Origin: a virus
Taxonomy: Duplodnaviria > Caudoviricetes
Length of the DNA: 57,452 nucleotides
Strand: one strand, 5' to 3'
IMG/VR virus record: IMGVR_UViG_3300048623_000040
Location: 1-57,452 of that record
Under the pieces are notes generated by a model. That model was given only the letters and a program-made list of their open reading frames with translations. It did no database searches and was not told the origin of the DNA. Below are positions 1 to 57,452 of the stretch, piece after piece; position 1 is the first letter of the stretch, and every line of letters starts with the position of its first letter. A program made the translations under genes and the position numbers.

Positions 1-36
1 GACCTACGAGCTAGCCCCCTAGCTCGACCGACGACT

Positions 37-360
37 CTACGGCCGATAAAATGGCGGAGGTACGCAGGGGTCTCCTATCGTGGGACCCCTGAACCACTTC
101 AAGACGCCCCTATGTCGGAACAGCACCCAAGCCTCGACGTCATGCCGCTGGCATTCGATGAAGAAATTATGCTGGCTGGCCCGCAGGGCATTGATGGATG
201 GCTTGCCTATTTTGAGTTCCAGAAACTGGGCGTGCCCAGCATACAGACCGATGCAATCGGGAAGCCCGTTGGGCGTGGTGGTTTCGAGTCGTTGCCACCA
301 GCCGCGCAGGTCCGGCTTTATATCGAGCCAGAGTTTTGCTTCTGTGTCAGCCATCGCCAC
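37..360 (-). CDS. VRR-NUC-like PD-(D/E)XK nuclease (Holliday junction resolvase-like)
   Basis: Motif E...GLPD...FLELK...LRASQ typical of small phage PD-(D/E)XK nucleases. Confidence 0.7.
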   Translation of the reverse strand: MAMADTEAKLWLDIKPDLRGWWQRLETTTPNGLPDCIGLYAGHAQFLELKIGKPSINALRASQHNFFIECQRHDVEAWVLFRHRGVLKWFRGPTIGDPCVPPPFYRP

Positions 361-824
361 GATCTCTGGGATTTGATGTCTCTGACGGCGGAGATGCTAA
401 TTTCATACTCCGCAGCTAACTCATAAAGGTTGCCAGAGCTACGCCATATCTCTAGGGCCTGCTGCTCTGTCAGCTTGTTCGTATGCATGGCGCGACCGCG
501 CTTCTGCCGTGTCTTGCTCACCATGTCGTCTACGTTGTCCTGATGGGTTCCGAGGAAGAAATGGAGAGGCTCCACGCACTTCGTATTGTCGCAGCGATGG
601 CAGACCTGTTCCTCGGTGGACAGGAACACGCCGTGCGTTTCCTCGTACACTATCCGCGATACTTTCCGGCATCGCGGCGGCTGAAAAGTCCTATCCTTGA
701 CCATGGGGTATCGGCCACTGAGCGTACACACGAGGCAATGTACGCCTTCAACTAGCGGCGTCGTCTCGTCCCGGTAGGACGACCGGGCTATCCGGGTCAT
801 GAGGGGGACGGGACGAGGTGCCAT
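318..824 (-). CDS. HNH homing endonuclease with C-terminal HTH
   Basis: VCHRCDNTKCVEPLHFFLGTHQDNVDDM (HNH_3 pattern), then KLTEQQALEI...LAAEYEISISAVRDIK HTH. Confidence 0.85.
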   Translation of the reverse strand: MAPRPVPLMTRIARSSYRDETTPLVEGVHCLVCTLSGRYPMVKDRTFQPPRCRKVSRIVYEETHGVFLSTEEQVCHRCDNTKCVEPLHFFLGTHQDNVDDMVSKTRQKRGRAMHTNKLTEQQALEIWRSSGNLYELAAEYEISISAVRDIKSQRSWRWLTQKQNSGSI

Positions 825-826
825 TT

Positions 827-1591
827 CTACGGCCGCACGAGTCGTTCCTTGAGCCCGCCGAAGCTCAGCGTCTTGGGCACTTCGTCGTGATCCTGCGCCA
901 GCCCGAGCAGCAGGTGGAAGGCCACCATGCCGGCGTGGAACAGGCCGTCGGGCCGCCGGATGCGCTTGATGCGCCGCCCGCCGTCGACTGCTTCGAGGTT
1001 GCCAGTGCGCATGCGGCCGATGATGTAGAAGCCGACATCGAGCGCGCGGTTGCTGTACAGGCCATCGATCAGCGCCTTGGCGGCAGGCCGCGAATCGACG
1101 CCCTCCATGTAGCCCTGCTGGGACATCTTGCGGGCCACGCTGTTGACCTCGCGGTCGCTCAGCTTCATGTCCTCGAACGCCTTGACCGCGCGGCTGATGT
1201 CGCGGAAACGACTCGACAGCATCTCGACCGGCTCCTCGTAGCCTTTCCAGCGCTGGACCTTGAGCGTCGGCCCGATCAGGAAGCTGCCATCCCTCTGGAC
1301 GCCGACACCGATGTGGGCGCGCCTGTCCTTGAAGTGGCTGTTGAGCAGGAAGAACGTCAGGCCGTCCGAGCGGCTCGCGGCGACGAGGTGTCGGCCATCC
1401 TTGGCCTTGGCCTTGCCGCTGTCCTTGTGGCGGCGGCCCTGCACGGCGACGCCGATCTCGGTCATGTCATGGGCCGCCCGGACGTGACGCAGGAACGCCG
1501 TGGTGTCGAGTATCTTCTCGGTCTTGGCGTTCTTGCGGGGGGCGGCGGCGGGGGCGGTCTTGGCCACCTTGGGCAGAGAAATGTGTGTCAT
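827..1591 (-). CDS. Hypothetical protein, possibly DUF932-like
   Basis: ATG at 1591 chosen because the longer ORF overlaps the GGCT gene antisense; FLLNSH motif recalls DUF932. Confidence 0.45.
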   Translation of the reverse strand: MTHISLPKVAKTAPAAAPRKNAKTEKILDTTAFLRHVRAAHDMTEIGVAVQGRRHKDSGKAKAKDGRHLVAASRSDGLTFFLLNSHFKDRRAHIGVGVQRDGSFLIGPTLKVQRWKGYEEPVEMLSSRFRDISRAVKAFEDMKLSDREVNSVARKMSQQGYMEGVDSRPAAKALIDGLYSNRALDVGFYIIGRMRTGNLEAVDGGRRIKRIRRPDGLFHAGMVAFHLLLGLAQDHDEVPKTLSFGGLKERLVRP

Positions 1592-1657
1592 GTGATAGTG
1601 GTAGTCGGTATCCTCATGATAATCAAGATTGTACTTATCGCAAGGATACTGTAGGAT

Positions 1658-2125
1658 GTGGGAATGGCACACCGCACTTATCCCCACCTGATGTTTGTCT
1701 ACGGCACCCTCCAGAAGGGTCACGGCAACAACCGCGTCATGATCGGCGAGTCGGGCAAGGAGGCACTCCTGCTCGGCAAGGCGACGACCATGCAGAAATA
1801 CTGGATGGCGAGCGGCGGCTACCCGCGCGTCGCCAAGCAGGTCCTCGGCGGCTTCCCGCCCGACATCGAGCGCGAGGACTACCACGGTCAGGTGCGGGGC
1901 GAGGTCTGGATGGTCAACGACTCGGCGATCAAGGCGTGCGACCACCTCGAAGGCCACCCCCGCTTCTACCAGCGCGAGATCGTCCCGGTCACCCTCGACA
2001 AGGACCGCGCCCGCCTGCGGCCGTGGATGTACATCATCGTCGAGCCCTTCCGGGCCTACGAGTGCATCGAGAAGAACCGTGACGGCGTGCTGCACTGGGA
2101 GTCCCTGTACCGGGTCGCCTCGTGA
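1658..2125 (+). CDS. Gamma-glutamylcyclotransferase (AIG2-like) family protein
   Basis: FVYGTLQKGHGN...VRGEVW...CDHLEGHP.FYQR signature. Confidence 0.85.
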   Translation: MGMAHRTYPHLMFVYGTLQKGHGNNRVMIGESGKEALLLGKATTMQKYWMASGGYPRVAKQVLGGFPPDIEREDYHGQVRGEVWMVNDSAIKACDHLEGHPRFYQREIVPVTLDKDRARLRPWMYIIVEPFRAYECIEKNRDGVLHWESLYRVAS

Positions 2126-2317
2126 AGAAGCTCTCCGACACCTTCGTCCGTACAGCCCTAGCCAGCGGTGCCATCGTGCCTCCACCAGACCGGCCACAGA
2201 CCTCCGCCTGCAACACGCTTGCCGCTGTGGGATGGATTATAGCCTTCCTCGGGGCCTCCGCATTAGCGGTAGCATACTTCTTGGAGCGCGTTTAGTCTGC
2301 GCTCCAGAGGAGACTGC

Positions 2318-2635
2318 ATGAAGATCGTCAACAAGGCCCTGACTGACCTCGACAACAATGTCATCAAGGCAGGCGACATCGAGCTGACCGTCGCCACCGT
2401 CATCATCAACTGCGCGCTGTCCCCCATGCCGCCGACACCGGATGGCAAGACCCGCGAGGAAGCCGAAATCAAGGCGCGCGGCGACCTTGCCGCCATCGTC
2501 AACAAGGCAGCGATTGGCGAATCGTTCGACGTCTCCCCGGAGATGGTCGTCGAGCTGAAGAAGGACCTGCGACGACTCTTCTCGACCCTGATCGCGTGGC
2601 GGATGCTGCCCATCATGGACGGCAACAGCCACTAG
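2318..2635 (+). CDS. Hypothetical protein
   Basis: AGAGGAG SD upstream; phage-like codon usage. Confidence 0.65.
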   Translation: MKIVNKALTDLDNNVIKAGDIELTVATVIINCALSPMPPTPDGKTREEAEIKARGDLAAIVNKAAIGESFDVSPEMVVELKKDLRRLFSTLIAWRMLPIMDGNSH

Positions 2636-3093: not shown

Positions 3094-6000
3094 TTACGTT
3101 TTGATTATTTTGTTCATTACCATGGTTGCCTGCGTGTTGTTGTGCGCAATGCCACTGCCCGTAGGGTCAGTCCCCAGCAGGCCAGAGCCAGCGACCGTAA
3201 TGTCCAAATCCTGAAACAGGCCGGCATTGGTGCCGTCCGCCGTGCCCACGGCGCGCGTCGTTCCATTGGACAGGTTGTTGCCGACAAGCCCGTGGCCCGA
3301 TGCCGTGTGACCGTGGCTTTGTATCGTGTGCGCATGCCCCGGCAACTCTCCTATCGCCAGTGCCACGGTTCCTGCGCCGCCCGCCGAGCCAACAGTAGAG
3401 GGATTGGCGATGTTCAGGCGACCCGCGCCGCCGTCCGGTCCCGCTATCACACGGCCACGAAGATCGGGCAGGTTGAAGTTACCGCCACTGCCGCCATAGG
3501 TGTAGCCGATGGCGGCGTGCAGATTGCCATAGGACGCGACTGTCACCGACTGGCCTTGGCACAGCAGCCATCCGGCCGGGGCTGTCGTACCGGCATAGTC
3601 GAGGACCGAGCCAACCGGAACGTCACCACCACCGCCGGCCACGCCGGGATCACCCTGCGGCCCCTTGAGGCCGGTGAGCGGGAACGCGGAGAACATAAGC
3701 AGCCGCGCGCCAATAGTGCCCGCAACGCCGCCGCCTGCGAAAACCTCAAAGTAGTCGGTACCGTTGGCGTCGATGTTACAAGACAAACTTTGTGCGTCGT
3801 TGTAGTTCGTAGTAGCCGATACACCATACGAATTGACTACACCGACGCCGTTTTTGTAAAGTTGAAGGTAGCCGGTCGATGCGCCGCTGCTCGACATGTA
3901 AGTCGAGTGCGCCGAGATATGATAGCGCCCAGCAGGCGGCGTGTAGCGACCCGTCGCTACGTTGTACCAACTACCCGAATTGCCCGAGAGAATGAGGTCG
4001 GGCTTCATCACCACTGGAGTTACCGGAGCGGTCACGTTCGCTGAGTTCGTCGCGGAGAAGTCGCCGCCCGGTGAGGCGACGCTGGCCCTCACCCACGCCG
4101 TCGTTGCGATCTCGTTGTTATTGCTGCCGGGAGCAGGTGACCTGCCTATGGTGCCAAGCCCATCATCCGTGACGATGAACAGCGGCGCGTTGAAGGCACT
4201 GTTGACGATGTCGAACTGGCCGTTGATCGAGCGCAGCCACTTGTTGGGCGCGCTACCCGCAGAGTTGCCGACCAGCAAAATGCCTGCGCCGTTGATGCCA
4301 GTTCCAGTGACAGAGAGTTGCTGTGTGTTCCCGGCACCATTGTCGTTGATCCAGCCAGCGGGTGTGCTTACACCGCCGGTGGCGATAAGCTGGCCGCCGC
4401 TGAAGTAGTGAGACCCACCTTGGTCGTTGCTGTAGTTGATCTCCAGACCGGAAGAGCCGTAGCCGATGTAGCCGCGCCGTGTCCCGCTGGCCTCGGTGAA
4501 CGAAATGTATCCCGTGTTGGTCGCACCATCGGCATTCATGCTGACCTTGCCGTTGCCGGAAGTGCCCGCCTCGACATAGTTCCTGAACCCCCCGGCAGAG
4601 GCCACAACGGAGCCGGCCTGATCGGAGTTACCGGCAGCATCGGCGCGGTATTTAAGAACGCCAGCGGTGTCGTACATCTCGAACGTCGAGTAGACGATGC
4701 TGCCGCTGCGAAGCTCTATGCAGGCCGAATGGGCGGCGTTCGCGCCGGTCATGTACATCCGGCCAGTGCCCGGCTGGGCCGCCGTAATGTCTGTCCCGGC
4801 ATAACCGACGCCAAGACCGTTAAGGTTGTTGTCGGTCGGCGGCGTGACAACGAGTCGTCCGCAGGGGACGGAAATTCCGGTCGGGCTCATCCACAGGTAA
4901 TAGGTGCTCTGGTCGACCTTCCTGAAATAGTGGTTGTCGTTGGTGTAGTAGCTCGACGGATTGACCGTGTTGCCCATCGTGATGTTGTTCACCGCGCTGA
5001 GCGGCGAACGCAGGGCGGTATAGTCACCGCCTTCCCGTATCAGGACAGGCTGATCGTTAAGCCTGAAGGTGTTACCGGCATTGACCCAATCGGTCAGCGT
5101 CGCCGTCGTGCCGGTCAGCGCGCCGTTGACGACAAGATTGTTCAGAAGATTGAGTTGCCCAGTGGGACCAAAATATCCATACGTTGGCGTGCCCGCCGGT
5201 CCCTGAAAGTAGATGCCGCCGCCCGAGTAGGTGCGGATGCCGACGTTGGTGCCGTCACCGCCGAAGCCTGCATTGCTGCCGGTTGCAGCGAGGGGGCCAT
5301 AGATCAGATTGTTGAACGTCGCCGTCGTGCCGGTCAGCGCGCCCGTCAGGGTGACGTCTCCGGTCGAGCGTGTGATCTTGAATGGCGTGCCGAGCAGGGC
5401 ACCGGCATCGGTGTAGCTGTTGATGATGTAATCGCTGCCGGCGTTTGAGCCGCTTTCCGCGACGTTGTTCTTGGCCAGCACCCAGCGGGCGTTCACACCT
5501 GTCCGAAGGATCGTTCCGGCGAACTGGCCGGCGTCGGCGATGGCGTACAGATAGGCGGCGAGCGCATCGCCGGTCCGATCAACAACAATGCTGCCACCAG
5601 TCGTCGATATGCTGCCGCCGGTACTGGTGACGCCTCCTGTTGCCGACAATGTTCCGGCCATTACTGTACTGCCATCGTACTTGTAGCGCGTGTGCTCGGT
5701 GAACGTCGTGTCGGCTCCGAGCTTGCGGATCGACACGATCAGGTCGCCAAGCGGGCCGGTGCCGCTAATGGCGTAGCCCTTGATCGCGGCAAACGAGCCG
5801 AAGCCGTCACCGAACATCACCGCGCCGCCGGTTCCCGTCGCCGTGCCGGTGCCGTGTGCGTAGATCGTTGCGGCCTGCGAGCCAGCCGGATCGTAGTTGG
5901 CGGCGGTCTGGTCAGTGCCCCGGACGTGCAGGCGGGCAGCGGGAGTTCCGTTCAGTCCAAGGGCGACGTAGCCCGTGGCGCGGGACGCATACAATACCGA

Positions 6001-7527
6001 TTGCAGGGCCGCGCCGGCGTCGTCGGAGGAAGTGATGAACAGGTCACTGCCTGCGTTGGACCCGGCCTCGGCACCGCCCGTCTTGTACAGCGACCAGCGG
6101 TTCAGGCTGCCCGTCTGCATGTAGATGCCAGCAGCCTGCCCGGCATCGGCACGGGTATAGAAAACCGCACCGTTGGCATCGCCGGTGCGGTCGATCATCA
6201 CATAGCCGCCCGTGGAGATGATGTTGCCGGCGCTGGTGGTGATGTTCCCGGTCATCGACAACGACGTGCCGGCGAGTGCGCCGGTCATCGTGTCGCCCGC
6301 CACGTTGACGTAGGTGGCGTCGGCCGCTGCCGCCGTCTGGTAGCCCTGATCCTTGACGAACTTGGTGGTGGCGAGGCTCTGGTCGTTGTCGCTCGCCGGG
6401 ATAACGGTCGCGAGGGTCGGGTTGCCGGTGAACACGGGCGACAGGAGCGGCGCGACCTTCGTCCAGTCGACGCGCAGCTCTACGTTGCCTGACACGCCGC
6501 CGCTATCTGGGTCGAGGCCGTCACCCGCCGCGACACCGAGGATCGGCCCGTCGCCGGTCGCCGTGTTGAGGTAGCCGGTGATCTTGACTCGCGTGCCGCT
6601 GGTAGGGGCCACGCCCTGCGCGCCGATGAATATCGCATTCATCTTGATCCAGCCCAGCGTCCCGCCCCCGTCGTCGGGCTCACTGGTTATGTCGTAGCGC
6701 GCATAGAACGTCGTCGGGACGAACTCGTTGGTGATGATCAACGAGTCGCCGGGCAGGAACAGCGTCAGGTAGCGAAAGAAACCGTCGTCATCGACCTTGC
6801 TGATCGAAATCCGCCGTGCGTTGGGGTCGGGCGGGTCGACCGTGACCGTCTCGATCCCCATGTTGCCGACGTCCGGGTCGACCAGCGTGTTGGTCGGGGT
6901 GATGTACTGGTAGACCGCCGCGCCCTGACCTCTGGTCGTGAACAGGTCGCGCACCCACGCCGTCGAGGCGATGTTGCTCGAATTGTCGGTGCTGATTCGT
7001 TTCGGCACCGAGGACGTGCCGGCTGGCGCGGCCGATGAAATGGTGAAGCTGGTGCTGATCGTCGCGCTGGGTGCCGTCACCGTGCTGCTAAACGCCGCCG
7101 TCGTGCCGGTCATGTGCCCGCTGAACGCGCCGGTCACGCTGCTCATCGCGCCTGTCAGGGTGACGTCCGTACCGAGCAGCGTCCCGGTCATCGTGTCGCC
7201 TGTCACGTTGACGTATGCGGCGTCAGCCGCTGCCGCCGTCTGGTAGCCCTGATCCTTGACGAAACGAGTCGTTGCAATCGACGTGTCGTTGTCCGATGTC
7301 GGCGGTGTCGGAGCCGTCGGGTTGCCGGTCAGGATGACGTTGGCCTTGATCGTCGGGTCGGGATACGTCCCCGCCAGATCGCCACCAGCCGGTCCCGTCG
7401 GCACGTTGAACCCTGTGCCCTTGACCGAAACCCACATCGTGCCGTTCCACTTGTACGTGGCTCCGTTGGCAGCGGTGAAGCTCTGGTTAAGTGTCAGAGG
7501 CGGATTTGGAAAGTCGATGACTGACAT
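3094..7527 (-). CDS. Long tail fibre protein with C1q-like domain, short collagen repeat and C-terminal tail-collar domain
   Basis: Gly/Thr-rich; PTAPTPPTSDNDTSIATT fibre repeats; YNVATGRYTPPAGRYHI (C1q-like); GLKGPQGDPG; VPVGSVLDYAG..APAGWLLCQG...FNLPDLRGRV tail collar. Confidence 0.85.
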   Translation of the reverse strand: MSVIDFPNPPLTLNQSFTAANGATYKWNGTMWVSVKGTGFNVPTGPAGGDLAGTYPDPTIKANVILTGNPTAPTPPTSDNDTSIATTRFVKDQGYQTAAAADAAYVNVTGDTMTGTLLGTDVTLTGAMSSVTGAFSGHMTGTTAAFSSTVTAPSATISTSFTISSAAPAGTSSVPKRISTDNSSNIASTAWVRDLFTTRGQGAAVYQYITPTNTLVDPDVGNMGIETVTVDPPDPNARRISISKVDDDGFFRYLTLFLPGDSLIITNEFVPTTFYARYDITSEPDDGGGTLGWIKMNAIFIGAQGVAPTSGTRVKITGYLNTATGDGPILGVAAGDGLDPDSGGVSGNVELRVDWTKVAPLLSPVFTGNPTLATVIPASDNDQSLATTKFVKDQGYQTAAAADATYVNVAGDTMTGALAGTSLSMTGNITTSAGNIISTGGYVMIDRTGDANGAVFYTRADAGQAAGIYMQTGSLNRWSLYKTGGAEAGSNAGSDLFITSSDDAGAALQSVLYASRATGYVALGLNGTPAARLHVRGTDQTAANYDPAGSQAATIYAHGTGTATGTGGAVMFGDGFGSFAAIKGYAISGTGPLGDLIVSIRKLGADTTFTEHTRYKYDGSTVMAGTLSATGGVTSTGGSISTTGGSIVVDRTGDALAAYLYAIADAGQFAGTILRTGVNARWVLAKNNVAESGSNAGSDYIINSYTDAGALLGTPFKITRSTGDVTLTGALTGTTATFNNLIYGPLAATGSNAGFGGDGTNVGIRTYSGGGIYFQGPAGTPTYGYFGPTGQLNLLNNLVVNGALTGTTATLTDWVNAGNTFRLNDQPVLIREGGDYTALRSPLSAVNNITMGNTVNPSSYYTNDNHYFRKVDQSTYYLWMSPTGISVPCGRLVVTPPTDNNLNGLGVGYAGTDITAAQPGTGRMYMTGANAAHSACIELRSGSIVYSTFEMYDTAGVLKYRADAAGNSDQAGSVVASAGGFRNYVEAGTSGNGKVSMNADGATNTGYISFTEASGTRRGYIGYGSSGLEINYSNDQGGSHYFSGGQLIATGGVSTPAGWINDNGAGNTQQLSVTGTGINGAGILLVGNSAGSAPNKWLRSINGQFDIVNSAFNAPLFIVTDDGLGTIGRSPAPGSNNNEIATTAWVRASVASPGGDFSATNSANVTAPVTPVVMKPDLILSGNSGSWYNVATGRYTPPAGRYHISAHSTYMSSSGASTGYLQLYKNGVGVVNSYGVSATTNYNDAQSLSCNIDANGTDYFEVFAGGGVAGTIGARLLMFSAFPLTGLKGPQGDPGVAGGGGDVPVGSVLDYAGTTAPAGWLLCQGQSVTVASYGNLHAAIGYTYGGSGGNFNLPDLRGRVIAGPDGGAGRLNIANPSTVGSAGGAGTVALAIGELPGHAHTIQSHGHTASGHGLVGNNLSNGTTRAVGTADGTNAGLFQDLDITVAGSGLLGTDPTGSGIAHNNTQATMVMNKIIKT

Positions 7528-7529
7528 GG

Positions 7530-44837: not shown

Positions 44838-44891
44838 GGGGCGTGGTGCGCCCCGATCTAAGACCTGAGTCCTGTCGATTGTCAACGACTC
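44838..44891 (-). promoter_or_regulatory. Promoter of the ParB-like gene: TTGACA, ATCGACAGGA box, two GANTC sites and a leader hairpin
   Basis: Minus strand reads GAGTCG-TTGACA-ATCGACAGGA-CTC...TTAGAT-C-GGGGCG-CACCA-CGCCCC. Confidence 0.6.
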
Positions 44892-46407: not shown

Positions 46408-46823
46408 ACCAACGACTCGCGACGGCGCTGCTGAGTTCGCTCAATCGCACAGCGCCTACACATCCGTCGCTTACCGGGGTAGCTATACGTGTTCTCGGGC
46501 GTGAACTCGTGACCGTGAACGCAATGTGTTTGGGCGGCTTTCATCGCTGCTTGTGTATGCCCTCGCATAAGATTGACGCGGCACGTCACAGCCTCAAGGT
46601 GCTCGGCGTCGATGCAGGCTCGATTACGACATAGATGATCGAGCTGCAAGCCAGCAGGCACCAAGCCGCGCGCCAACTCATAGGCGCAGATGTGGGCCTG
46701 CCGGTCACTGCCACGGTCCTTGATCCTGCCGTAGCCATCCTTGTCCTTGCGACCAAGCCATATCCGACAGCCATTGATGCGGATGCTGCCATCGTAGAGT
46801 CGTCGCGCGAGCGTGCTCATCAT
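46404..46823 (-). CDS. HNH endonuclease with C-terminal Zn finger
   Basis: CRIWLG...GYG...AH..AYE...LDHLCRNRACIDAEHLEAVT..VN; THCVHGH...CRRC. Confidence 0.9.
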   Translation of the reverse strand: MMSTLARRLYDGSIRINGCRIWLGRKDKDGYGRIKDRGSDRQAHICAYELARGLVPAGLQLDHLCRNRACIDAEHLEAVTCRVNLMRGHTQAAMKAAQTHCVHGHEFTPENTYSYPGKRRMCRRCAIERTQQRRRESLV

Positions 46824-47108: not shown

Positions 47109-47303
47109 CTAGCACGGCTTCTCCTGTCCTCTCATCGCGACACGCGCAGCAGCATCAATGTCGTCTGCCAACGTCCTGATATATTCCAGCCCCACCCGCA
47201 GTCGCTCGATCTCGTCGGCGGCTTCATCACCCAAGGGGCTGTAGGTGGCCTCGCCATACTCATACACCGAGGCCTTGCGCAGGCGTTGCACGATGTCGGT
47301 CAT
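47109..47303 (-). CDS. Small phage hypothetical protein (DIVQRLR...EAADEIERLR)
   Basis: ATG at 47303 overlaps the MTase stop; motif common in phage small proteins. Confidence 0.7.
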   Translation of the reverse strand: MTDIVQRLRKASVYEYGEATYSPLGDEAADEIERLRVGLEYIRTLADDIDAAARVAMRGQEKPC

Positions 47304-48151
47304 GACTTGGCCCTCACGATGGTCGTCGACTCGACGACGCGCGGTCCGAACACGAACCACGCGAAGTCAACACTGCCATTATGGCCGCGATCAGGGACAT
47401 CGGGCGGCAGCATCTTGAGTCGTCCGACGATGATCACCTTGGTCAGATGCTTCAGCAGGTCGGCGCGCTTCTGCGCGGCCACCCATGTCATGCGCAACAG
47501 CACACACACCAGCCTGTCGTTTTCAACGATGCGCAGCGCGTGACGCACATGATCGTCGGCCTTCGAGTAGGGCGGGTTCATCACGATGTTGCTCGGCGTC
47601 TCCATGCACGACAGGAAGTCGTAGCCGAACGACACGTCGACACCGAGGCGCAGGCCGGGCGTCGGCCATCGATACTTGTCGGAGCCTGACGCCGCGCGTC
47701 CCGCCTCGATCATCGTGCGCACGATGTTGCCGCGTCCACAGCTCGGGTCCCACACGCCGCCGTCCAGCTTCACGTTGCTCAGCAACTGATGCACGGCGTC
47801 AGGCGGCGTCTCGTAGTTGTCGTGCGGATCGCGCTCGTCCTCCATCAGGCCGTACTGGCCTGCGGCGCGGCGCACGCGCTTGAGCCGGGCAAGCCGCTTG
47901 GCCTTCTTGACCGCGAAGTCTGGGCTGTTCAGCAATGCGCGGGCGTGCTTGGCCGAGAGCGGCTCGTTGTCGGCGGCCAGCCTGCGCTTAGCCGTGGCCG
48001 TTGGTTCTGCCGTTGGGCGAGTGGATGAGGCGCGGGCCTTCGCGCGGGTCGGTGAGGTCGCGCTCTTCCGGGTCTTCGTTGGTCTCGATGAGCGTCGAGC
48101 CGCGTTCTTGGTTGTCTTGCGCTTCACGTCGTGCTGCCCCCGCCAGTTCAT
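47300..48151 (-). CDS. Orphan DNA amino-methyltransferase (N6-adenine type); true start probably downstream of 48151
   Basis: YETPP, WDPSCGRG (motif I), IVMNPPY (motif IV), FAWFVF. Confidence 0.85.
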   Translation of the reverse strand: MNWRGQHDVKRKTTKNAARRSSRPTKTRKSATSPTRAKARASSTRPTAEPTATAKRRLAADNEPLSAKHARALLNSPDFAVKKAKRLARLKRVRRAAGQYGLMEDERDPHDNYETPPDAVHQLLSNVKLDGGVWDPSCGRGNIVRTMIEAGRAASGSDKYRWPTPGLRLGVDVSFGYDFLSCMETPSNIVMNPPYSKADDHVRHALRIVENDRLVCVLLRMTWVAAQKRADLLKHLTKVIIVGRLKMLPPDVPDRGHNGSVDFAWFVFGPRVVESTTIVRAKS

Positions 48152-49186: not shown

Positions 49187-51283
49187 TCACTCGGGTATTG
49201 CCTCGGGCTCCACCTCATCGGGCGGCTCAGGTGGCCTGACGTCCAGCCCGAGCTGGCCCTCTTCGTTCACCGGACGCTCAGGCGCAGACCGCGCATCAGA
49301 GGCCCACAACGCCTCGCTGTGAGGCACCAGCCTGATCTTGGTATCGAACACCGCGCGCGCGCTGATACACGTCCCAAGGTCAATTCCGCGCCTGTTGTCG
49401 TACCCGCACAGGATGACCGTGGTGGCCCCGCCCTCGACCGGGCGCTCCCCCACCGGGTCAGTCGACTTTGCCCGGCCGTCGCTGAAGCCGAGGCCGAGCA
49501 GCCAAGTGCTCAGCTTGCGCTGGCTGTACATCGGCCCCTCATTCCGTCCGCCGTGCAGCCGGTAGTACGACTCGTAGCTGGCGTAGAGCAGGGTGCGTGA
49601 CACCACGTTGCGCCACACCTCGAACTCGGGATGGTCGCCCTTGGGTTGCCAGACGTAGCGCCGCTCCAGCACCTGTTCGAGCCACTTGTGGTGTGGCTCC
49701 CACGAGAACTCGCGCTGCTCGGACATGGCGCGTGTGTGGTAGTTCTTGCGCACGTCGAAGCCGCTGATGTCGCGCACCAAGAGATCGAACAGCATGCATT
49801 CCAGCCCACCGTCCTGACGCATCTGCTTGGTGATCGCGCCGAAGTACGCCCGGTCATTGATGCGCTGCGAGCTGACCTTGTAGACCGTCGGCCGACGTGA
49901 CGATGTCGACACCCTGATCGCCCAGTCGCTGTTGGTTGCCATGACGATGTGCAGGAGGTTCTTCACTGTGTAGCGCGAGTAGAACTTGCGATGCACGCTG
50001 ATCACGTCCTGCGTCACCAGAGGCTTGAGTGCATTGTCGGTCTTGCGCGAGCCCGAGAACACCGCCTCGTCGGCAAACAGCGCGACCTTGTCCTGCAGGT
50101 GATCGTTGTAGCCGCTTGGTCCACCGGTCAGGCCCTCGGTGCTCGACACATAGAAGCCGTGCGACTTGCCGAGCAGCGCCGTGAACATGTCACCGAAGAC
50201 GCCCTTGCCGACGCCCTCCTCGCCCTGCAGCACGAGGAACGTCTGGCCCGGCATGTGCGGCTTCTGCACCATGTTGGCGAGCCAGTTGATCGTCCATCGG
50301 TATAGCTCGACGTCGCCATCGCAGATGACATCAAGCACCAAGCGTCGGAACCTGCGCCACGATCCCTTGGGTCTCGGCATGGTGATGCTGCCGCGCCCGC
50401 CCTTGCCGTCGGCGAGCAGCGCCTTGAGATCGTCGGGCAGGTCGTAGCCCTTGAAGCCTTCGAGCTGGGGTCCGAAGCCACGCCATGTGTTGAGCACGTT
50501 CTTGCTGGTCCTCATGCGCGGCACGCAGTCGACACCTTCGCGGTGGGCCTTGGCCTGCCCGCTCTCGATCCACCACCGTGGCCCATCCTTCTCGATGTCG
50601 CCCTGCCGCGTCGGGATCAGCACCTTGACGTCGGCGTAGTGGTCCTCGAACTCCTTGTAGGTGAAGTAGCGCAGCGTGTTGTCAGGCAGGCGCTCGACCA
50701 CCGTGGACTTCGAGGCCAAGCGCGCAGTCACGTAGCTCTTGTTGAACGCCTCGACCAAGGCGGCCTGCGTGTAGCTGCCGGGTGCAAGGAACGGCGAGTC
50801 GTTGTCGTGGCCATTGGCGCGCCGATGCTGGGGGAATGCGACCTGCTGGACGTTGCCACCGCGTGGCCGCCAGCGATGATTGAGCCGGCTGATCTCGCGC
50901 CTGAGCGCGGTCGCCTTGAACAGCGCCGCCTGAGCCGACGAGTAGTGCCGCTCGTTGCGCAGGAAGTCGCGCATCTCGACTTCGAGCCGGTCGAGGCTGT
51001 GCGCATCGTGGTAGCCGAGCGCCGCCAAGGTCGCGAAGTCCTCGACCGAGAGGCGCGAGATGAACTCACCGGCCGGGGGCTTCTCGACACCGAAGGGGGC
51101 CATCGCCTTGAGCCGTTCCATCACGTCTTCGATCTCGGCCGCCGTCGGCACCGCAGGTGGTGCGTCGGGCATTGCCTCGCGCACCGCGTCGGCCGCCTCG
51201 ATCTGCTCGCGCAGAGCCCGCTGCTCGGGCGTCTCCGCGTCCTCGGGTGGCGGTGCGCCGCCACTCCCACTTGTGTCCGTCAT
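49187..51283 (-). CDS. SF3 helicase (DUF5906 / D5-like)
   Basis: WLANMVQKP...LQGEEGVGKG Walker A; LFADEA Walker B; IVMATN...RR. Confidence 0.85.
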   Translation of the reverse strand: MTDTSGSGGAPPPEDAETPEQRALREQIEAADAVREAMPDAPPAVPTAAEIEDVMERLKAMAPFGVEKPPAGEFISRLSVEDFATLAALGYHDAHSLDRLEVEMRDFLRNERHYSSAQAALFKATALRREISRLNHRWRPRGGNVQQVAFPQHRRANGHDNDSPFLAPGSYTQAALVEAFNKSYVTARLASKSTVVERLPDNTLRYFTYKEFEDHYADVKVLIPTRQGDIEKDGPRWWIESGQAKAHREGVDCVPRMRTSKNVLNTWRGFGPQLEGFKGYDLPDDLKALLADGKGGRGSITMPRPKGSWRRFRRLVLDVICDGDVELYRWTINWLANMVQKPHMPGQTFLVLQGEEGVGKGVFGDMFTALLGKSHGFYVSSTEGLTGGPSGYNDHLQDKVALFADEAVFSGSRKTDNALKPLVTQDVISVHRKFYSRYTVKNLLHIVMATNSDWAIRVSTSSRRPTVYKVSSQRINDRAYFGAITKQMRQDGGLECMLFDLLVRDISGFDVRKNYHTRAMSEQREFSWEPHHKWLEQVLERRYVWQPKGDHPEFEVWRNVVSRTLLYASYESYYRLHGGRNEGPMYSQRKLSTWLLGLGFSDGRAKSTDPVGERPVEGGATTVILCGYDNRRGIDLGTCISARAVFDTKIRLVPHSEALWASDARSAPERPVNEEGQLGLDVRPPEPPDEVEPEAIPE

Positions 51284-51559: not shown

Positions 51560-52552
51560 CTATGGTTTACGCGCGGCGTTGATCGCCGATTTGAAATCCC
51601 CTCGATGCTCAAAGTGCCTGAAAAGAGAAAAACTGTCGCCGAAGCAGGTGACAGGCGACGCCTTTACCGGCCGCCTGCCAAGCCCGGCCTGCGCGTCGCT
51701 GTCGCTGAATGAAACCCACCTCTCGGCCTCGCCGTCGCGCTTGATCACCGTCGCCCCGACACTACCGCTAGACTGCAGCGGCGACTTCCAGCGCGCGCCC
51801 GACTGCCGGTAGCCGTAGTGGCCCAGCGCCTCGACCAGTGGATGTGATTGGTTGAACGACTCGATGGCCGCCTTGGTGTTGGCGTCGAGCCCGATGCCGG
51901 CCCTGATCTCGTCGCGCTGGCTCTGCATGTCGGCGGTGTAGAGCCGCACCGCCAGACCGGTGATGGTGGCGAAGTCGACCGGGTAGCCGTCGACCGCCTC
52001 GCCGTACTTGAGGTTGGCCCGGCCCGCCGGGTAGCGCGCCGTGAAGAACAGCGACGCCGCGCCGAGCTTCGAGGGGTCGGTGACCCCGTCCAGCCGGAGC
52101 AGCTTGGCGAAGGCCAGCGCGACGAACGGATCAAACTCGGCCAGCGAGTCGTTGAGCAGCATCGGCTGGCTCAGCGGGGCAACCACGCGGTAGCGGGTGT
52201 CGCCCTCGTCGTGGCTGTGGGTGGTGTAGACCACGCTGGCAACCTTGAGCGCGCGGAGTCGTTTGACGATCTCCCACGGTGGCGGTGGGACTTCGCCGGT
52301 CAGCTTGCTGGCCTCGATGTCGAGCGCGATCCCGGTGCGGCAGATCAGGTGCTCGCCGCCCCGCTGGTCACCATGGAACTCGGCCATGCAGATCGCCATG
52401 CCATCCTTGTCGCCGACCTCGTGCGTGGCCAGAGAGGCGGCCAGCCTGCACCACTGGCCCTGCAGGCGGGTGCCTGCCGGGGTGAAACGATTGGGGAACC
52501 GGGTGACGACGACCGGGGCAGTTTCGGGCAACGACAGGATGGTTGCGGGCAT
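51560..52552 (-). CDS. AEP-family primase/prim-pol
   Basis: KDG...R...IALDIE...VYTTHSH...RYRVVAPL; start placed at ATG 52552. Confidence 0.75.
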   Translation of the reverse strand: MPATILSLPETAPVVVTRFPNRFTPAGTRLQGQWCRLAASLATHEVGDKDGMAICMAEFHGDQRGGEHLICRTGIALDIEASKLTGEVPPPPWEIVKRLRALKVASVVYTTHSHDEGDTRYRVVAPLSQPMLLNDSLAEFDPFVALAFAKLLRLDGVTDPSKLGAASLFFTARYPAGRANLKYGEAVDGYPVDFATITGLAVRLYTADMQSQRDEIRAGIGLDANTKAAIESFNQSHPLVEALGHYGYRQSGARWKSPLQSSGSVGATVIKRDGEAERWVSFSDSDAQAGLGRRPVKASPVTCFGDSFSLFRHFEHRGDFKSAINAARKP

Positions 52553-52709
52553 GGCAAGACCTTGCAGGGCATTTGGTTGCCCGGTCCGACCGAAAAATAC
52601 CGGTTGAACAGGGCTCGGTGTACCGCTAGGTCTTGTCCTAGCGGTTTTCTGTGACAAGTAACCGTAGCCTTCTTCCGGGTGCCCCCGCAACCGGTTTGAT
52701 GGCAACACT

Positions 52710-52740: not shown

Positions 52741-52812
52741 CATTGTCTGCCCCATCTATTGTGTCGAAAACGATGTGGCCCACCAGATGTGGTCGAACTA
52801 TCCTGCCGGTTT

Positions 52813-52895
52813 ATCCTGTCGATTTCATTTGACCACGAGTCGTCGATATGAGATAACTCTCTCCTCGGGCGAACAGCGCCCCCTAACCAAAGGAA
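52813..52895 (+). promoter_or_regulatory. Early promoter/leader repeat, copy 1
   Basis: TCCTGTCGAT..TTGACC-N17(CGAGTCG)-GATAAC..GGGCGAACAGCGCCC-CCTAACC-AAAGGA. Confidence 0.8.
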
Positions 52896-52903
52896 TTTGA
52901 AGC

Positions 52904-53119
52904 ATGGCACGTCGTTCTTTCATCCGCCGGGGCTGCTACGGACAGGCCCCCTCCACCCGCCCGGTCAAGAAGTACGTCGCTGATCTCGGGCCGCGCCCGG
53001 CGGGCGGCTCCGCCCTCATCAACTGGCTGTGGGATTTCTGCATCGCCCCCGACTCCACCATCGAGCAGCGCAACGCCGCCGCCATCGAGCGCCGCGCCCT
53101 CCTCAAGGCGGTGGCCTGA
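52904..53119 (+). CDS. Early hypothetical protein
   Basis: Follows repeat copy 1 and its SD. Confidence 0.7.
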   Translation: MARRSFIRRGCYGQAPSTRPVKKYVADLGPRPAGGSALINWLWDFCIAPDSTIEQRNAAAIERRALLKAVA

Positions 53120-53123
53120 GACA

Positions 53124-53216
53124 ATCGACAGGATCGTCGATTATCCTGTTGACGTCAACCCACGACTCGTGAGATAAGATGACCACCGGGCGAACAGCGC
53201 CCCCTAACCCAAGGAG
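53124..53216 (+). promoter_or_regulatory. Early promoter/leader repeat, copy 2
   Basis: ATCGACAGGA..TCCTG-TTGACG-N18(CGACTCG)-GATAAG..hairpin-CCTAACC-CAAGGAG. Confidence 0.8.
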
Positions 53217-53222
53217 CTATGA

Positions 53223-53399
53223 ATGACCAACACCGTCACCCTTTCCCTGACCCGCCGTGAGGCCGAGATTCTGGCCGACGTGATGCGCCGCGCCCAGACC
53301 GGCGGCACCAAGCTGCACTACGACTACCCGACGATGGCCGAGCGCACCGTCACGCTGGTGACGGCGATCACCACCCTCGACGCACAGTTGGAGGGCTGA
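53223..53399 (+). CDS. Early hypothetical protein (58 aa, MTNTVTLSLTRREAE...)
   Basis: Translated by hand; AAGGAG SD. Confidence 0.7.
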   Translation: MTNTVTLSLTRREAEILADVMRRAQTGGTKLHYDYPTMAERTVTLVTAITTLDAQLEG

Positions 53400-53621: not shown

Positions 53622-53824
53622 GCAACCCCCAGATGACGCTGAACCAGCTCCGCGACAAGCTGAACGCCATCGACGCCAAGTACGGTGACTACCCGGTCAC
53701 CGTGTGGGTGCAGGGCAACCAGCCTACCTTCATCGACCTGCGCATGGTGATAGGGCCGATGGACATCAGGAGCCCGGCCGGAACGCGCGGAGAGGTCATC
53801 ATCGACGCCAACATTCGCAAATAA
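53618..53824 (+). CDS. Early hypothetical protein
   Basis: ATGA overlap with the upstream gene. Confidence 0.65.
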   Translation: MSNPQMTLNQLRDKLNAIDAKYGDYPVTVWVQGNQPTFIDLRMVIGPMDIRSPAGTRGEVIIDANIRK

Positions 53825-53916
53825 ATCGACAGGACCCGTCATTGTCCTGTTGACGACGACCCACGACTCGTGAGATAAGATGGCCTCGGGCGAACAACGC
53901 CCCCTAACCAAAGGAA
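53825..53916 (+). promoter_or_regulatory. Early promoter/leader repeat, copy 3
   Basis: ATCGACAGGA..TCCTG-TTGACG-N18(CGACTCG)-GATAAG..GGGCGAACAACGCCC-CCTAACC-AAAGGA. Confidence 0.8.
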
Positions 53917-53924
53917 CTGAACAC

Positions 53925-54458
53925 ATGGCAACCGCGACCAACCACTTCCACGCAATCGACCCGCAGGGCGTCGCCCACACCCGCTCGACCAAGCGGACCT
54001 ACAGCCACACCGTGGTTGTCCGCCTTGGCGACGCCTACGCCGCCCGCCAGCTCGCCAACAGCCTGAAGCACACCGCCGCGCAGGCCCCCAAGGACTACGC
54101 CTTCCACCAGAGCGTGATCGACCGGAGCTGGCACTACGTCGACGGCAAGGTCGGCGGCACCCTGCGCTACCCCAACAGCACCACCGAGGCCGAGATGCTG
54201 CGCGACACCGCCAAGCACACCGCCGAGCTGGACGGTCGCACGGTCGAGCAGTACACCGCCGACGCGCTCGACGCCGTCCGCAAGAGCCACGCCGAGGACG
54301 TCGCCAAGGGCTACTTCAGCGACTTCATCAACGTCGGCTGGTGCGGTCGCCTCGACCTCGCGATGAAGCTGGCCAATGGCGGCCACCGCTACACCAACCC
54401 GCAGAACGTGATCGTCCTTGAGGCGGTGGCCGGCAAGCCGCCCAAGGCGGTGCGCTAA
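53925..54458 (+). CDS. Early hypothetical protein
   Basis: ATG after the repeat's SD; strong codon bias. Confidence 0.75.
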   Translation: MATATNHFHAIDPQGVAHTRSTKRTYSHTVVVRLGDAYAARQLANSLKHTAAQAPKDYAFHQSVIDRSWHYVDGKVGGTLRYPNSTTEAEMLRDTAKHTAELDGRTVEQYTADALDAVRKSHAEDVAKGYFSDFINVGWCGRLDLAMKLANGGHRYTNPQNVIVLEAVAGKPPKAVR

Positions 54459-54667
54459 TGGCCACTTTCATGGACCTCATCGAGCGCTCGCACGACGACT
54501 CGTTCGACAAGCCGGTCAACTTCTACGTCAAGTATCCCGAGGGCGTGACCGACGACTACGGCCAGACCGGCTACTACTTCCGCACCATCAGCGCCGCGAA
54601 GTACATGGCCCGCCGTGCCTTCAAGGCCAAGCCGGGCGACGTGCTCTACCTGCGCAAGGACATGTAG
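54458..54667 (+). CDS. Early hypothetical protein
   Basis: TAATG overlap. Confidence 0.65.
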   Translation: MATFMDLIERSHDDSFDKPVNFYVKYPEGVTDDYGQTGYYFRTISAAKYMARRAFKAKPGDVLYLRKDM

Positions 54668-55597: not shown

Positions 55598-55627
55598 CCC
55601 GGCCGGTGGATTCAGACACCGGCCGGG
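55598..55627 (+). terminator. 11-bp stem-loop just before promoter copy 4
   Basis: CCCGGCCGGTG-GATTCAGA-CACCGGCCGGG. Confidence 0.55.
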
Positions 55628-55631
55628 ATTG

Positions 55632-55712
55632 TCCTGTCGATTTTATTTGACGCCATCCTGTCGATATGAGATAACACTGCCTCGGGCGACCAGCGCCCCC
55701 TAACCCAAGGAG
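55632..55712 (+). promoter_or_regulatory. Early promoter/leader repeat, copy 4
   Basis: TCCTGTCGAT..TTGACG-N17(second TCCTGTCGAT)-GATAAC..GGGCGACCAGCGCCC-CCTAACC-CAAGGAG. Confidence 0.8.
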
Positions 55713-55720
55713 CTACCTCA

Positions 55721-55957
55721 ATGCAAACCGTTTCAGTCCGCTTCGTCGACCTCAAGATTGCCGACATGGTTGCCCTGCCGACCAGCATCCCCGGCGAGCG
55801 CCTCGTGACCTCGGTGGTCGATCTGGAGGCCGCCTATCGCGGCTATGGCCGCCCCGCCCGCTACCGCGTCCAGTTCTCGGGCGGCAAGTACCAGTACGTC
55901 ACTGCCGACGACCGGGTCGACATGGTGGTCACGGGCTCCCTCACGGTGGGAGCCTGA
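55721..55957 (+). CDS. Early hypothetical protein
   Basis: Follows the SD of repeat copy 4. Confidence 0.7.
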   Translation: MQTVSVRFVDLKIADMVALPTSIPGERLVTSVVDLEAAYRGYGRPARYRVQFSGGKYQYVTADDRVDMVVTGSLTVGA

Positions 55958-56270: not shown

Positions 56271-56488
56271 GCGTCTTCACCGTCCGCAAGACCGGGCTGA
56301 CCGACCGGCTCAACTTCAGCCCGACCGACCGCCAGCGCCGCCTGCTGGCCCGCTACCTGCAGAGCGCCCAGCTCAACGCGATCTACGACGAGCCGCCGGG
56401 CGACCTCAGCAAGGGTGAATGGAAGAAGGTCCTCGACCTGCTGGAGCGTCTGGAACGCGCCTGCTTGGCGGAATTGCCGCCCGAATAA
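56267..56488 (+). CDS. Early hypothetical protein
   Basis: GGAGG SD, ATGA overlap. Confidence 0.65.
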   Translation: MSVFTVRKTGLTDRLNFSPTDRQRRLLARYLQSAQLNAIYDEPPGDLSKGEWKKVLDLLERLERACLAELPPE

Positions 56489-56490
56489 AA

Positions 56491-56583
56491 ATCGACAGGA
56501 CGGTAAACAATCCTGTTGACCGCCCCCGTCGATTCGTGCGATAAGATGACCACCGGGCGAACAGCGCCCCCTAACAAAAGGAA
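56491..56583 (+). promoter_or_regulatory. Early promoter/leader repeat, copy 5
   Basis: ATCGACAGGA..TCCTG-TTGACC-N18(CGATTCG)-GATAAG..GGGCGAACAGCGCCC-CCTAAC-AAAAGGA. Confidence 0.8.
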
Positions 56584-56588
56584 CCAGA

Positions 56589-56825
56589 ATGACCAAGCTC
56601 AGCCGCTACTGCCTCCTCAAGCCCCTCCGCGATCCGTCGTGGGACGCCATCAAGGCGCGCGTCTACTACCGTGGCAGCAAGCCCGCCCGCCTCGCCACCT
56701 ACGCTCTCGACAAGCAGGGCATCGAGTGGGAATGGGTCGACGCCGCGCAGGAGATGCGCCGCCGCGAGGTCAACCTGATCGCCTTTCTCGCCCGCAACCC
56801 GGCCCCCAAGATCGGGGGCCGCTAA
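56589..56825 (+). CDS. Early hypothetical protein
   Basis: Follows the SD of repeat copy 5. Confidence 0.7.
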   Translation: MTKLSRYCLLKPLRDPSWDAIKARVYYRGSKPARLATYALDKQGIEWEWVDAAQEMRRREVNLIAFLARNPAPKIGGR

Positions 56826-57022
56826 TGGCCTCCCACAACCTCTCCTACGACATCCGCTTCAACGGCACCCACTACGAGGTCGTCCGCACCCGGACCTACT
56901 TCACGCTCGCCCCCAAGGTCGAGGTCGTCGCCGACGCGACGACTCGTGAGCAGGCCGAGGAGCAGGTGGCGTTCCATCAGTCCCTCGACGACGACGCGGC
57001 CCGCGACCGGGCCGGACGCTAA
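56825..57022 (+). CDS. Early hypothetical protein
   Basis: TAATG overlap; MASHNLSYDIRF... Confidence 0.6.
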   Translation: MASHNLSYDIRFNGTHYEVVRTRTYFTLAPKVEVVADATTREQAEEQVAFHQSLDDDAARDRAGR

Positions 57023-57055
57023 TTCAAACCACCAACCCCAGAAAGGAACTGTGCC

Positions 57056-57385
57056 ATGACAAATCTCAATCTCTCCGACGACTCGCAGCTCGACACCAGC
57101 CACCCGGCCAACGACTCGTCGGCCCGGCTGGTCGACGAGATCGGCACCATGAAGGCCCGCCTCGCGCCGCTGCTCGCCCAGCTCAAGATGCTGGAGGGCG
57201 CGCTCAAGGAGTACGGCCCCGGCCGCTACGAGGGCGCAGCCTACGAGGCGACGGTCAGCACCCACGAGCGCGACACGCTCGACATGAAGGCGGTGCGGGC
57301 CAAGCTCTCGCGCCAGTTCATCGCCGCCAACACCTCGACCGCCGAGGTCACGGTGCTCAAGGTCACGGCGCGGGTGCTGGCGTGA
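57056..57385 (+). CDS. Early hypothetical protein (LVDEIG.MKA...YEG..YEATVS...TLD)
   Basis: AAAGGA SD; resembles small conserved phage coiled-coil/beta proteins. Confidence 0.7.
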   Translation: MTNLNLSDDSQLDTSHPANDSSARLVDEIGTMKARLAPLLAQLKMLEGALKEYGPGRYEGAAYEATVSTHERDTLDMKAVRAKLSRQFIAANTSTAEVTVLKVTARVLA

Positions 57386-57452
57386 GCGACACCGGCCCGT
57401 GGCACATCTGGCTGAACAAGGTGCAAGGCCCCCGCGCACGCGGCGAGCGGTC

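Follow-up and report, generated by a model that had tools for sequence, protein, structure and literature searches.

A GANTC-containing heptamer loaded throughout a tailed-phage record, and a small phage methyltransferase as its candidate writer

The record and its dense heptamer

The DNA analysed here is the IMG/VR virus record IMGVR_UViG_3300048623_000040 (Duplodnaviria; Caudoviricetes), a single linear contig of 57,452 bases with a GC content of 63.3%, which CheckV rates as 83% complete. The whole stretch was used and is called the window below. Our subject is the heptamer GAGTCGT (ACGACTC when read on the other strand), which is scattered over the entire window, together with a gene for a small putative DNA methyltransferase that may modify this word. 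"Genome-wide" is to be read as record-wide for the heptamer, given the linear and incomplete contig. Genes were delimited with 61 rough open reading frame (ORF) calls of our own, which were chosen by an excess of G and C at third codon positions (GC3) and cover 93% of the sequence, and were named by family searches against Pfam, NCBIfam and PHROG. Nearly all genes from 318 to 52708 lie on the - strand; the + strand carries a run of small genes between 53223 and 57385 (Table 1).

There are 103 exact copies of the heptamer in the 57,452 bases, 58 on the + and 45 on the - strand, which corresponds to about 1.8 per kb or one per ~560 bases. Base composition predicts 7.1 copies and an order-3 Markov model 12.0. 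None of 100 dinucleotide shuffles reached the observed number (mean 9.98, standard deviation 3.32, largest 22). Shuffling synonymous codons within the ORFs (n = 200) left a mean of 28.0 copies (standard deviation 2.8, largest 38), of which 17 are intergenic or edge positions that, with our ORF calls, this shuffle does not touch. Whether ranked by composition, by order-3 or maximal-order Markov models or by the codon shuffles, GAGTCGT comes first among all 7-mers, and its enrichment in the record is real. An earlier note, made from the sequence alone, had counted about 95 copies on both strands by manual scan against a composition estimate of about 7, and had proposed Markov models and codon-preserving shuffles as checks. 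Its estimates were close, all 11 of its example positions are among the exact copies, and the enrichment survives both kinds of control.

The word is sharply delimited. Each of its single-base variants occurs at most 36 times, and the 36 copies of GACTCGT are largely due to the near-palindromic form ACGAGTCGT. Of all GAGTC pentamers in the window, 103 of 137 continue with GT. On the flanks, C precedes the word in 63 of the 103 copies and C or T follows at +8 in 88, giving the consensus c-GAGTCGT-y, much as the note had described it. Beyond -1, +8 and +9 the flanks carry no signal, which rules out a dispersed longer repeat as the source of the heptamer.

Copies inside ORFs span all six frames, 56 of them antisense (26, 17 and 13 per frame) and 30 sense (13, 9 and 8). 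The 17 intergenic or edge copies fall in about 7% of the sequence, so that the word is ~2.6 times denser in non-coding DNA. Within genes it draws on rare codons ending in A or T, as the note had stated for this GC-rich genome: 26 of 98 CGA, 17 of 108 ACT and 13 of 94 AGT codons lie wholly within a heptamer. Likewise, the repeat protein has seven Asn-Thr-Thr-Leu (NTTL) peptides, of which four are encoded with the heptamer and three without it, in agreement with the claim that the peptide does not dictate the motif. The six copies at 7850-8381 sit in the tandem repeats of that gene and are hence not independent. A codon or peptide artefact was considered as a source of the heptamer and is ruled out by the use of all six frames and by the codon shuffles. 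Gaps between copies are Poisson-like, with a coefficient of variation of 0.91 compared to 0.98 for random placement and a largest gap of 2,414 bases; regular spacing, as for priming or packaging signals, is thus not seen. Orientation is mildly clustered (41 runs vs 51.7 expected, p 0.02).

Table 1. Coordinates of the features discussed; RBS, ribosome-binding site; empty strand cells where none was given
Feature	Position	Strand	Remarks
HNH endonuclease	318-824	-	family search
Tail fibre	3094-7539		family search
63-nt tandem repeats in gene of 943-aa repeat protein	7840-8400	-	6 of 103 heptamer copies
Cell-wall hydrolase	13256-14320		family search
SU10-type adaptor	25169-25849		family search
Major capsid protein	28001-28927		family search
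Promoter-like site in spacer upstream of capsid-side genes	30085-30124	-	TTGACC, GAGTCGT (30102), TAAAAG
Cell-wall hydrolase	43080-43631		family search
Large terminase subunit	44890-46236	-	Terminase_6N/6C; anchor for finding relatives
HNH endonuclease	46404-46823	-	family search
Small N6-adenine-type methyltransferase, candidate writer of the word	47300-48151	-	motif I DPSCGRG, motif IV NPPY; phrog_799 "DNA methyltransferase", E 1.5e-40
P4/D5-type primase-helicase	49187-51283		family search
Early unit 1	52808-52909	+	TTGACC, 17-nt spacer with CGAGTCGT (52837), GATAAC, leader, RBS, ATG; repeat families D2, D4
Early unit 2	53123-53230	+	TTGACG, 18-nt spacer with ACGACTCGT (53162), GATAAG; repeat families D1, D2
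Early unit 3	53824-53930	+	layout as unit 2, ACGACTCGT at 53863
Early unit 4	55626-55726	+	spacer without GANTC; repeat families D2, D4
Early unit 5	56490-56597	+	spacer with CGATTCGT, a GANTC box but not the enriched word; position as in units 2 and 3

A small methyltransferase and the relatives that carry it

The candidate writer has a methyltransferase core of about 200 aa, to which clade A adds a basic, low-complexity N-terminal tail rich in K, R, S and T. It has no match in Pfam or NCBIfam. A large protein collection holds 88 homologs of ~180-220 aa, mostly unnamed, and in 40 homologs the residues N120, P121 and P122 are invariant, as part of a family motif NPPY/F that follows the S-adenosylmethionine (SAM)-binding motif. 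The AlphaFold2 (AF2) model is predicted with good confidence (predicted local distance difference test, pLDDT, 84.5). In a fold comparison it comes closest to the catalytic domain of M.TaqI and to other N6-adenine DNA methyltransferases (Foldseek against M.TaqI: E 5e-8, TM-score 0.55 on the query); the recognition domain is absent. The family profile gave no match in species-representative bacterial genomes.

Distant homologs annotated as DNA methyltransferases were found by tblastn in 126 cultured phage records, among them phiLM21_p027 of Sinorhizobium phage phiLM21 (26.8% identity, E 1e-6). A profile comparison with hhalign aligned the family to phiLM21_p027 over the whole domain (158 columns, probability 97.7%, E 1.8e-12). 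The latter, a protein of 218 aa that is unrelated to CcrM, is reported to methylate GANTC, and the same is described for 179-aa prophage enzymes with NPPW/F/Y motifs (PMC5537653). This homology places the window enzyme in a family of which the members tested put N6-methyladenine (m6A) into GANTC. GAGTCGT has a GANTC core and thus matches the family specificity, an agreement that is independent of the association between enzyme and loading given below. A CcrM-type methyltransferase (PF01555) was not detected at E <= 1 in the six frames of the record, in a search whose control rings in Caulobacter vibrioides.

Relatives were collected by their terminase; in what follows, L-numbers denote related environmental or phage loci, and G001, G002 and G003 are related records. 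Environmental contigs with a terminase 72-99% identical to that of the window carry GAGTCGT at 1.5-2.0 per kb. The relative G003 (69,077 bases, 99% complete) has 101 copies (55 on the +, 46 on the - strand) where 8.8 are expected, so the loading is kept in close relatives, a comparison that the earlier note had also suggested. The single sites are less stable. When the terminase genes of 12 genomes are aligned by codon, 10 columns have a site in at least one genome, five of them occupied in the window, and sites are gained and lost among close relatives, often synonymously, as in an Arg-Val-Val stretch that is spelled with or without the word. As sites come and go in this way, it is the density that is kept and not the particular positions.

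At a greater distance the word itself changes. In clade B, whose terminases are 62-64% identical to that of the window, GAGTCAG is loaded instead (9-26 copies vs 0.7-4.7 expected), with A at +8 in 32 of 47 copies and no pyrimidine preference at -1 (A 17, C 15, G 9, T 6). Contigs with terminases of 56-59% identity load neither word. The closest cultured relatives are the Caulobacter phages RW, KcrB, RLK and GB2A, with a terminase identity of 46.5%.

The association of loading with the enzyme was assessed on 89 of 106 environmental loci of at least 6 kb, which remained after the removal of overlapping copies. A locus was considered loaded if some GAGTCNN word had 8 or more copies, with an observed-to-expected ratio of 5 or more, and loci were divided by their match to the window methyltransferase into those with at least 200 bits, a weak match or none. 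Loaded were 13 of the 14 loci in the first class (the exception is L022), none of the 4 with a weak match, and 2 of the 71 without a match. Of these two, one begins 294 and the other 813 bases ahead of the terminase gene. The loaded clades all have their methyltransferase gene on the upstream side of the terminase gene; where a locus begins less than 1 kb upstream of the latter, the methyltransferase gene would therefore be off the contig. The locus starting at 813 bases belongs to record G001 (L195/L027, 35% complete), which has a terminase of 60% identity, 14 GAGTCGT in 20 kb vs ~2.3 expected, and no methyltransferase homolog in these 20 kb. In a maximum-likelihood tree of the methyltransferases, a well-supported clade of 8 rows loads GAGTCGT, and all 8 rows that load GAGTCAG fall within a second group of 13 rows (support 89/91), where they form two subgroups.

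Several loci show other patterns. In L226 (5.7 kb) the methyltransferase homolog is broken over two frames and part of the profile is missing; the locus has 3 GAGTC where 12 are expected. L024 encodes a distant homolog (59 bits) and has 394 GATC vs 96 expected in 13.8 kb, including 76 CGATCG vs 9.2, a part of which may be ordinary codon context at high GC. Overrepresented 7-mers in the terminase relatives L055, L101, L029, L051 and L095 were set aside as local clusters, tandem repeats or common codon strings. The top 8- and 9-mers of Caulobacter phage RW were rejected as well, since they belong to a longer repeat on one strand and are of a different kind from the heptamer loading: ACCTCAGCG occurs 34 times on one strand and never on the other (L011 and L012), inside a longer repeated element that resembles GCGGACCTCAGCGG.

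Comparison of gene content narrows down the possible readers of the word. The only non-structural gene detected in all of the window, G003 and the clade-B record G002 (63% complete) is the methyltransferase. G003 has no homologs of the primase, of the 51560-52708 protein or of the two HNH genes of the window. The earlier note had named a ParB-fold protein as a possible binder of the sites; this suggestion does not hold, as ParB_N (PF02195) gave no match at E <= 1 in the record and the equally loaded G003 lacks a homolog of the protein that had been taken for ParB-like (51560-52708). The primase is ruled out as reader on the same ground. So are the HNH genes, neither of which is present in G003; the one at 46404-46823 has no match in any related locus tested, not even in L001 with a terminase 99% identical, and both look like recent mobile insertions by their distribution. 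In another part of the record, between the terminase and the portal-side genes, an ORF of 1,975 aa (36102-42029, - strand) has parts kept at 35-71% in relatives and no match in Pfam, PHROG or PDB sequence searches.

The window and G003 also share four products without assigned function, encoded at 53880-54458 (68% identity), 54458-54667, 57056-57385 and 827-2197. These give room to the idea that the word is the binding site of another phage protein, such as the 192-aa product of 53880-54458 (+ strand) or a virion protein, with the methyltransferase as a fellow traveller. The 192-aa early protein has an invariant N-x-G-W-C-x-R-x-D-L-A stretch and a confident AF2 model (pLDDT 87.8) of a small sheet and a long helical hairpin, for which neither the PDB (no fold match at E <= 0.001) nor an Atlas search returned a match. 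However, family searches recognised no DNA-binding domain in any of the four products, none of them was found in G002 within the limits of its 63% completeness, and the agreement of the GAGTC core with the specificity of the methyltransferase family would have to be a coincidence. We thus judge such a reader improbable.

GANTC avoidance, GcrA boxes and early promoters

The loading of one GANTC context stands against a background of avoidance. Outside GAGTCGT, the window has 34 GAGTC where ~116 are expected, and 38 GAWTC where 71 are expected; the other GANTC contexts, to which the note had wanted the word compared, are depleted. The note had also claimed that GANTC is underrepresented in alphaproteobacterial hosts. 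Methylated GANTC is described as more than 2-fold underrepresented in Alphaproteobacteria (PMC8919816), and five alphaproteobacterial genomes of 2.7-6.3 Mb, which serve as stand-ins and not as the identified host, contain 9 to 141 GAGTCGT, all five at 0.09-0.30 of the reversed-word control and ~65- to 540-fold less densely than the phage.

Among the terminase relatives, 16 loci are devoid of GAGTC over 7-21 kb, for an expectation of 15-45 (L036, L042, L044, L045, L048, L058, L059, L067, L071, L073, L076, L078, L084, L110, L115 and L119), an avoidance far stronger than that in the background of the window. Total GAGTC is near the composition expectation in the window (137 vs 123), in G003 (150 vs 149) and in G002 (81 vs 80), which may be a coincidence.

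These totals, together with the depletion of the contexts that would be unprotected and the frequent lack of any GAGTC in relatives, fit the view that the heptamer is a by-product without function, either a remnant of restriction avoidance in which only methylase-protected GAGTC contexts survive, or the outcome of a bias in mutation or codon context. Restriction enzymes with GAGTC as their site could account for the depletion of the other contexts, but not for the loading: tolerance of a protected word cannot lift one heptamer to 10-15 times its expectation. A codon-context bias is opposed by the codon shuffles, which give 28 copies instead of 103, and by the use of all frames with the higher density in non-coding DNA; the flanks hold no signal from which a dispersed longer repeat could be derived. 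A functionless origin is accordingly very improbable.

Chi sites are short, asymmetric words that are selected for density and turn over, and the heptamer resembles them in these respects. It could act as a Chi-like or other host-read signal, for example by taming a host helicase-nuclease and so protecting linear phage DNA, and the mild clustering of its orientation would be in line with this. A Chi-like role is unlikely because the word is rare in alphaproteobacterial genomes: in each of the five stand-ins for the host the reversed control outnumbers it 3- to 11-fold, whereas a Chi site of the host would be expected to be frequent. Moreover, there is no overall polarity (58 vs 45 copies), and the word changes with the subclade of the phage methyltransferase. 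We give this explanation next to no credence.

A more serious competitor is the cell-cycle regulator GcrA. Its preferred methylated consensus is given as YGAKTCG (PMC5887438, PMC9976885), in agreement with the earlier note, and also as YGAKTCK (PMC7987155); for Brevundimonas GcrA no extended preference is described beyond a slight one for C before GANTC (PMC7987155). Boxes are reported mostly at -20+/-1 or -30+/-2 in the promoter spacer (PMC9976885), and we accepted boxes at these spacer positions or at +5 to +30. A GcrA-dependent prophage operon and a GcrA homolog in phiCbK have been described (PMC7987155). The window itself has no match to GcrA (PF07750) at E <= 1. YGAKTCG fits 75 of the 103 heptamer copies (73%). 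However, words that satisfy the consensus without the final T of the heptamer do not exceed their expectation (YGAGTCG before A, C or G, 12 vs 15.8; YGATTCG, 8 vs 11.3; YGAGTCT, 3 vs 11.3), while RGAGTCGT, which breaks the consensus, is found 28 times vs 3.6 expected. G003 shows the same pattern. By these counts, selection acts on GAGTCGT and not on the GcrA box as such.

Some GANTC boxes may lie where GcrA would use them. The early region on the + strand contains five promoter/leader units, which were found as repeat families and share one order of elements: inverted repeat, TTGAC[CG], a 17-18-nt spacer, GATAA[CG], leader, ribosome-binding site and start codon. Of the five spacers, all but one contain CGANTCGT, and three (53149, 53850 and 56516) have a GANTC that starts 15 nt after the start of TTGAC, which would centre the box of units 2, 3 and 5 near -19 if GATAAG is the -10 element. 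Of the remaining units, one has its box near -25 and one has none, and one of the three boxes near -19 is GATTC and not the loaded word. The promoter-like site at 30085-30124 has GAGTCGT 16 nt after the start of TTGAC, again near -19 if TAAAAG is its -10 element. From their layout, the early promoters resemble the usual CcrM/GcrA-type promoters found in an alphaproteobacterial host, for which the loaded word would be only one way of supplying the box. Each early unit is preceded by the inverted repeat ACAGGA, 8-10 nt, TCCTGT, which looks like an operator, and has a conserved GC-rich leader that ends in CCCCCTAAC ahead of the ribosome-binding site.

The earlier note had favoured the view that the copies are sites for host GcrA or CcrM. 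They would be methylated by host CcrM and would recruit or titrate either protein, with no specific role for the phage enzyme. The fit of 75 of the 103 copies, the boxes predicted near -19 in three of five early units and in the promoter-like site, and the published GcrA-linked phage genes speak for it. Apart from the box not being the unit under selection, there are several objections: clade B loads GAGTCAG(A) without a pyrimidine preference at -1, the loading tracks the presence of the phage methyltransferase, alphaproteobacterial phages without this enzyme, both related and unrelated, deplete GANTC, and most heptamer copies are intragenic and far from promoters. What stands of the proposal is the consensus fit and the predicted position of the promoter boxes; as a full account of the loading we regard it as rather doubtful.

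A phage methyltransferase as the proposed reason for the loading

The explanation that we prefer has GAGTCGT as the extended target of the small NPPY methyltransferase encoded by the phage, with selection for a high density of this word. From sequence comparison we put it at about an even chance. The support is circumstantial and comes from four directions: the distribution of the enzyme among loci, the change of word from one enzyme subclade to another, the exclusion of other genes by a complete relative, and the specificity of the enzyme family. The note had mentioned sites for an orphan methyltransferase only as an alternative, and this part has become the best-supported reading by virtue of the association, the word shift and the homology to a GANTC enzyme. 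We infer that the enzyme methylates the word, that it reads the additional bases, and that the mark is put to use in one of the ways described below.

In this scheme, the 47300-48151 enzyme would belong to the phage "CcrM-mimic" family typified by phiLM21_p027, and the lineage would be under selection to hold the word at ~1.8 per kb on both strands. The density would be maintained through rare synonymous codons and free spacer positions, while single sites turn over. As the gene is a late-module gene just upstream of the terminase, the packaged DNA would carry a dense m6A mark, on a word that is nearly absent from alphaproteobacterial chromosomes. The benefit per site that drives the loading is the more conjectural part. 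The most concrete lead is that methylated copies in promoter spacers may act as GcrA-type boxes, so that a genome methylated in advance could engage the GcrA-RNA polymerase of the host without depending on host CcrM, which is restricted by the cell cycle; the remaining copies might form a field that holds GcrA-polymerase on phage DNA. Alternatively, the mark could serve to distinguish the DNA of the phage from that of the host.

A number of observations weigh against the methyltransferase explanation. The fold of the enzyme also resembles small RNA and protein methyltransferases such as METTL5, HemK and KsgA, and its sequence matches DNA methyltransferases of solved structure only marginally (E ~0.01, with M.TaqI at 0.014). 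The characterised phiLM21_p027 reads plain GANTC, and phiLM21 is depleted of it (15 GAGTC plus GACTC vs 108 expected), so that loading does not follow from belonging to the family. No loaded heptamer is seen in cultured phages that have distant homologs (Sansa, Erythrobacter phage R16L, phiKM1 and RW): Sansa and phiKM1 are GANTC-depleted, R16L is not depleted and has no preferred context, and RW has 5 copies of GAGTCGT. The loaded loci come from a few related clades, and common descent thus confounds their association with the methyltransferase. In the enzyme tree, the GAGTCGT rows do not form one clade, as L207, L107 and L108 lie outside the main one; so do the unloaded L022 and the short L205 and L217. 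L022 has a homolog of 211 bits and only 7 GAGTC vs 28 expected, and the two short loci, which also have good homologs, are nearly free of GAGTC (one in the 3.5 kb of L205, two in the 3.0 kb of L217). As for the GcrA part, the GcrA box fails as the selected unit, and the clade-B word GAGTCAG(A) does not fit it. Finally, being a methylase target does not by itself explain why more sites should be of benefit.

A bolder version of the preferred explanation would treat the word as a private m6A barcode. Here, a CcrM-mimic with 7-8-base specificity would be matched by a genome recoded to carry its word, and the pre-methylated DNA would be read on entry, either as GcrA-type boxes that fire the early promoters at any stage of the cell cycle, or as a mark that separates phage from host. 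Specificity and genome would co-evolve, resulting in GAGTCGT in one clade and GAGTCAGA in another. We offer this as a tentative possibility.

The window enzyme shares with the phiLM21_p027 type (Sinorhizobium phage phiLM21 and Paracoccus prophages) its small size of ~180-220 aa, the SAM motif followed by NPP[YFW], the lack of a separate target-recognition domain (TRD), the phage-borne location in the alphaproteobacterial sphere and an enriched word that contains GANTC. It differs in the low sequence identity of 23-27%, in that its inferred word is 7-8 bases long and asymmetric, and in that its gene adjoins the terminase and not the replication module stressed for that type (PMC5537653). Since phiLM21 is itself GANTC-depleted, site loading is not part of the known system. 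M.TaqI-like gamma-class N6-adenine DNA methyltransferases have in common with it the fold of the catalytic domain and a motif I ahead of NPPY, but the window enzyme, with 211 vs 421 residues, has no C-terminal target-recognition domain. The host CcrM-GcrA module is similar in the GANTC core, the fit of 73% of the copies to YGAKTCG and the spacer boxes predicted near -19 in several phage promoters. Unlike the host, the record matches neither of the two Pfam families of this module, and while cellular genomes deplete GANTC (PMC8919816), the phage has one of its contexts in excess. The phage word is offset by one base from the GcrA box and requires a T at a place where the box specifies nothing. 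Chi sites and DNA uptake sequences occur in cellular genomes and are read by cellular machines. They too are short, asymmetric and overrepresented words that use all coding frames and turn over at a kept density, but the word of the window is phage-specific, rare in candidate hosts and tied to a phage methyltransferase.

CcrM-mimicking phage methylases (PMC5537653) and GcrA-linked phage genes (PMC7987155) are already in print. We found no description in the open-access literature of a phage genome loaded with a methylase-type heptamer or with clade-specific variants of one; in open-access full text, only primers and the like were among the matches listed for the heptamer, and its complement as a whole word gave 0 matches.

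Phage methylases are usually seen as restriction shields, and phage genomes usually shed recognition sites. The lineage described here does the opposite: it keeps one GANTC heptamer at 10-15 times its expectation at a cost in codon choice, and a sister lineage does so with a different 3' extension. If the methylase writes the word, this would be an example from nature of a genome whose composition has evolved jointly with the specificity of its methylase. The two closely related enzymes without a TRD would then have distinct, long and asymmetric specificities, and would be informative on how a minimal enzyme reads DNA. It would also open a testable route by which alphaproteobacterial phages may plug into the CcrM/GcrA cell-cycle circuit of their hosts.

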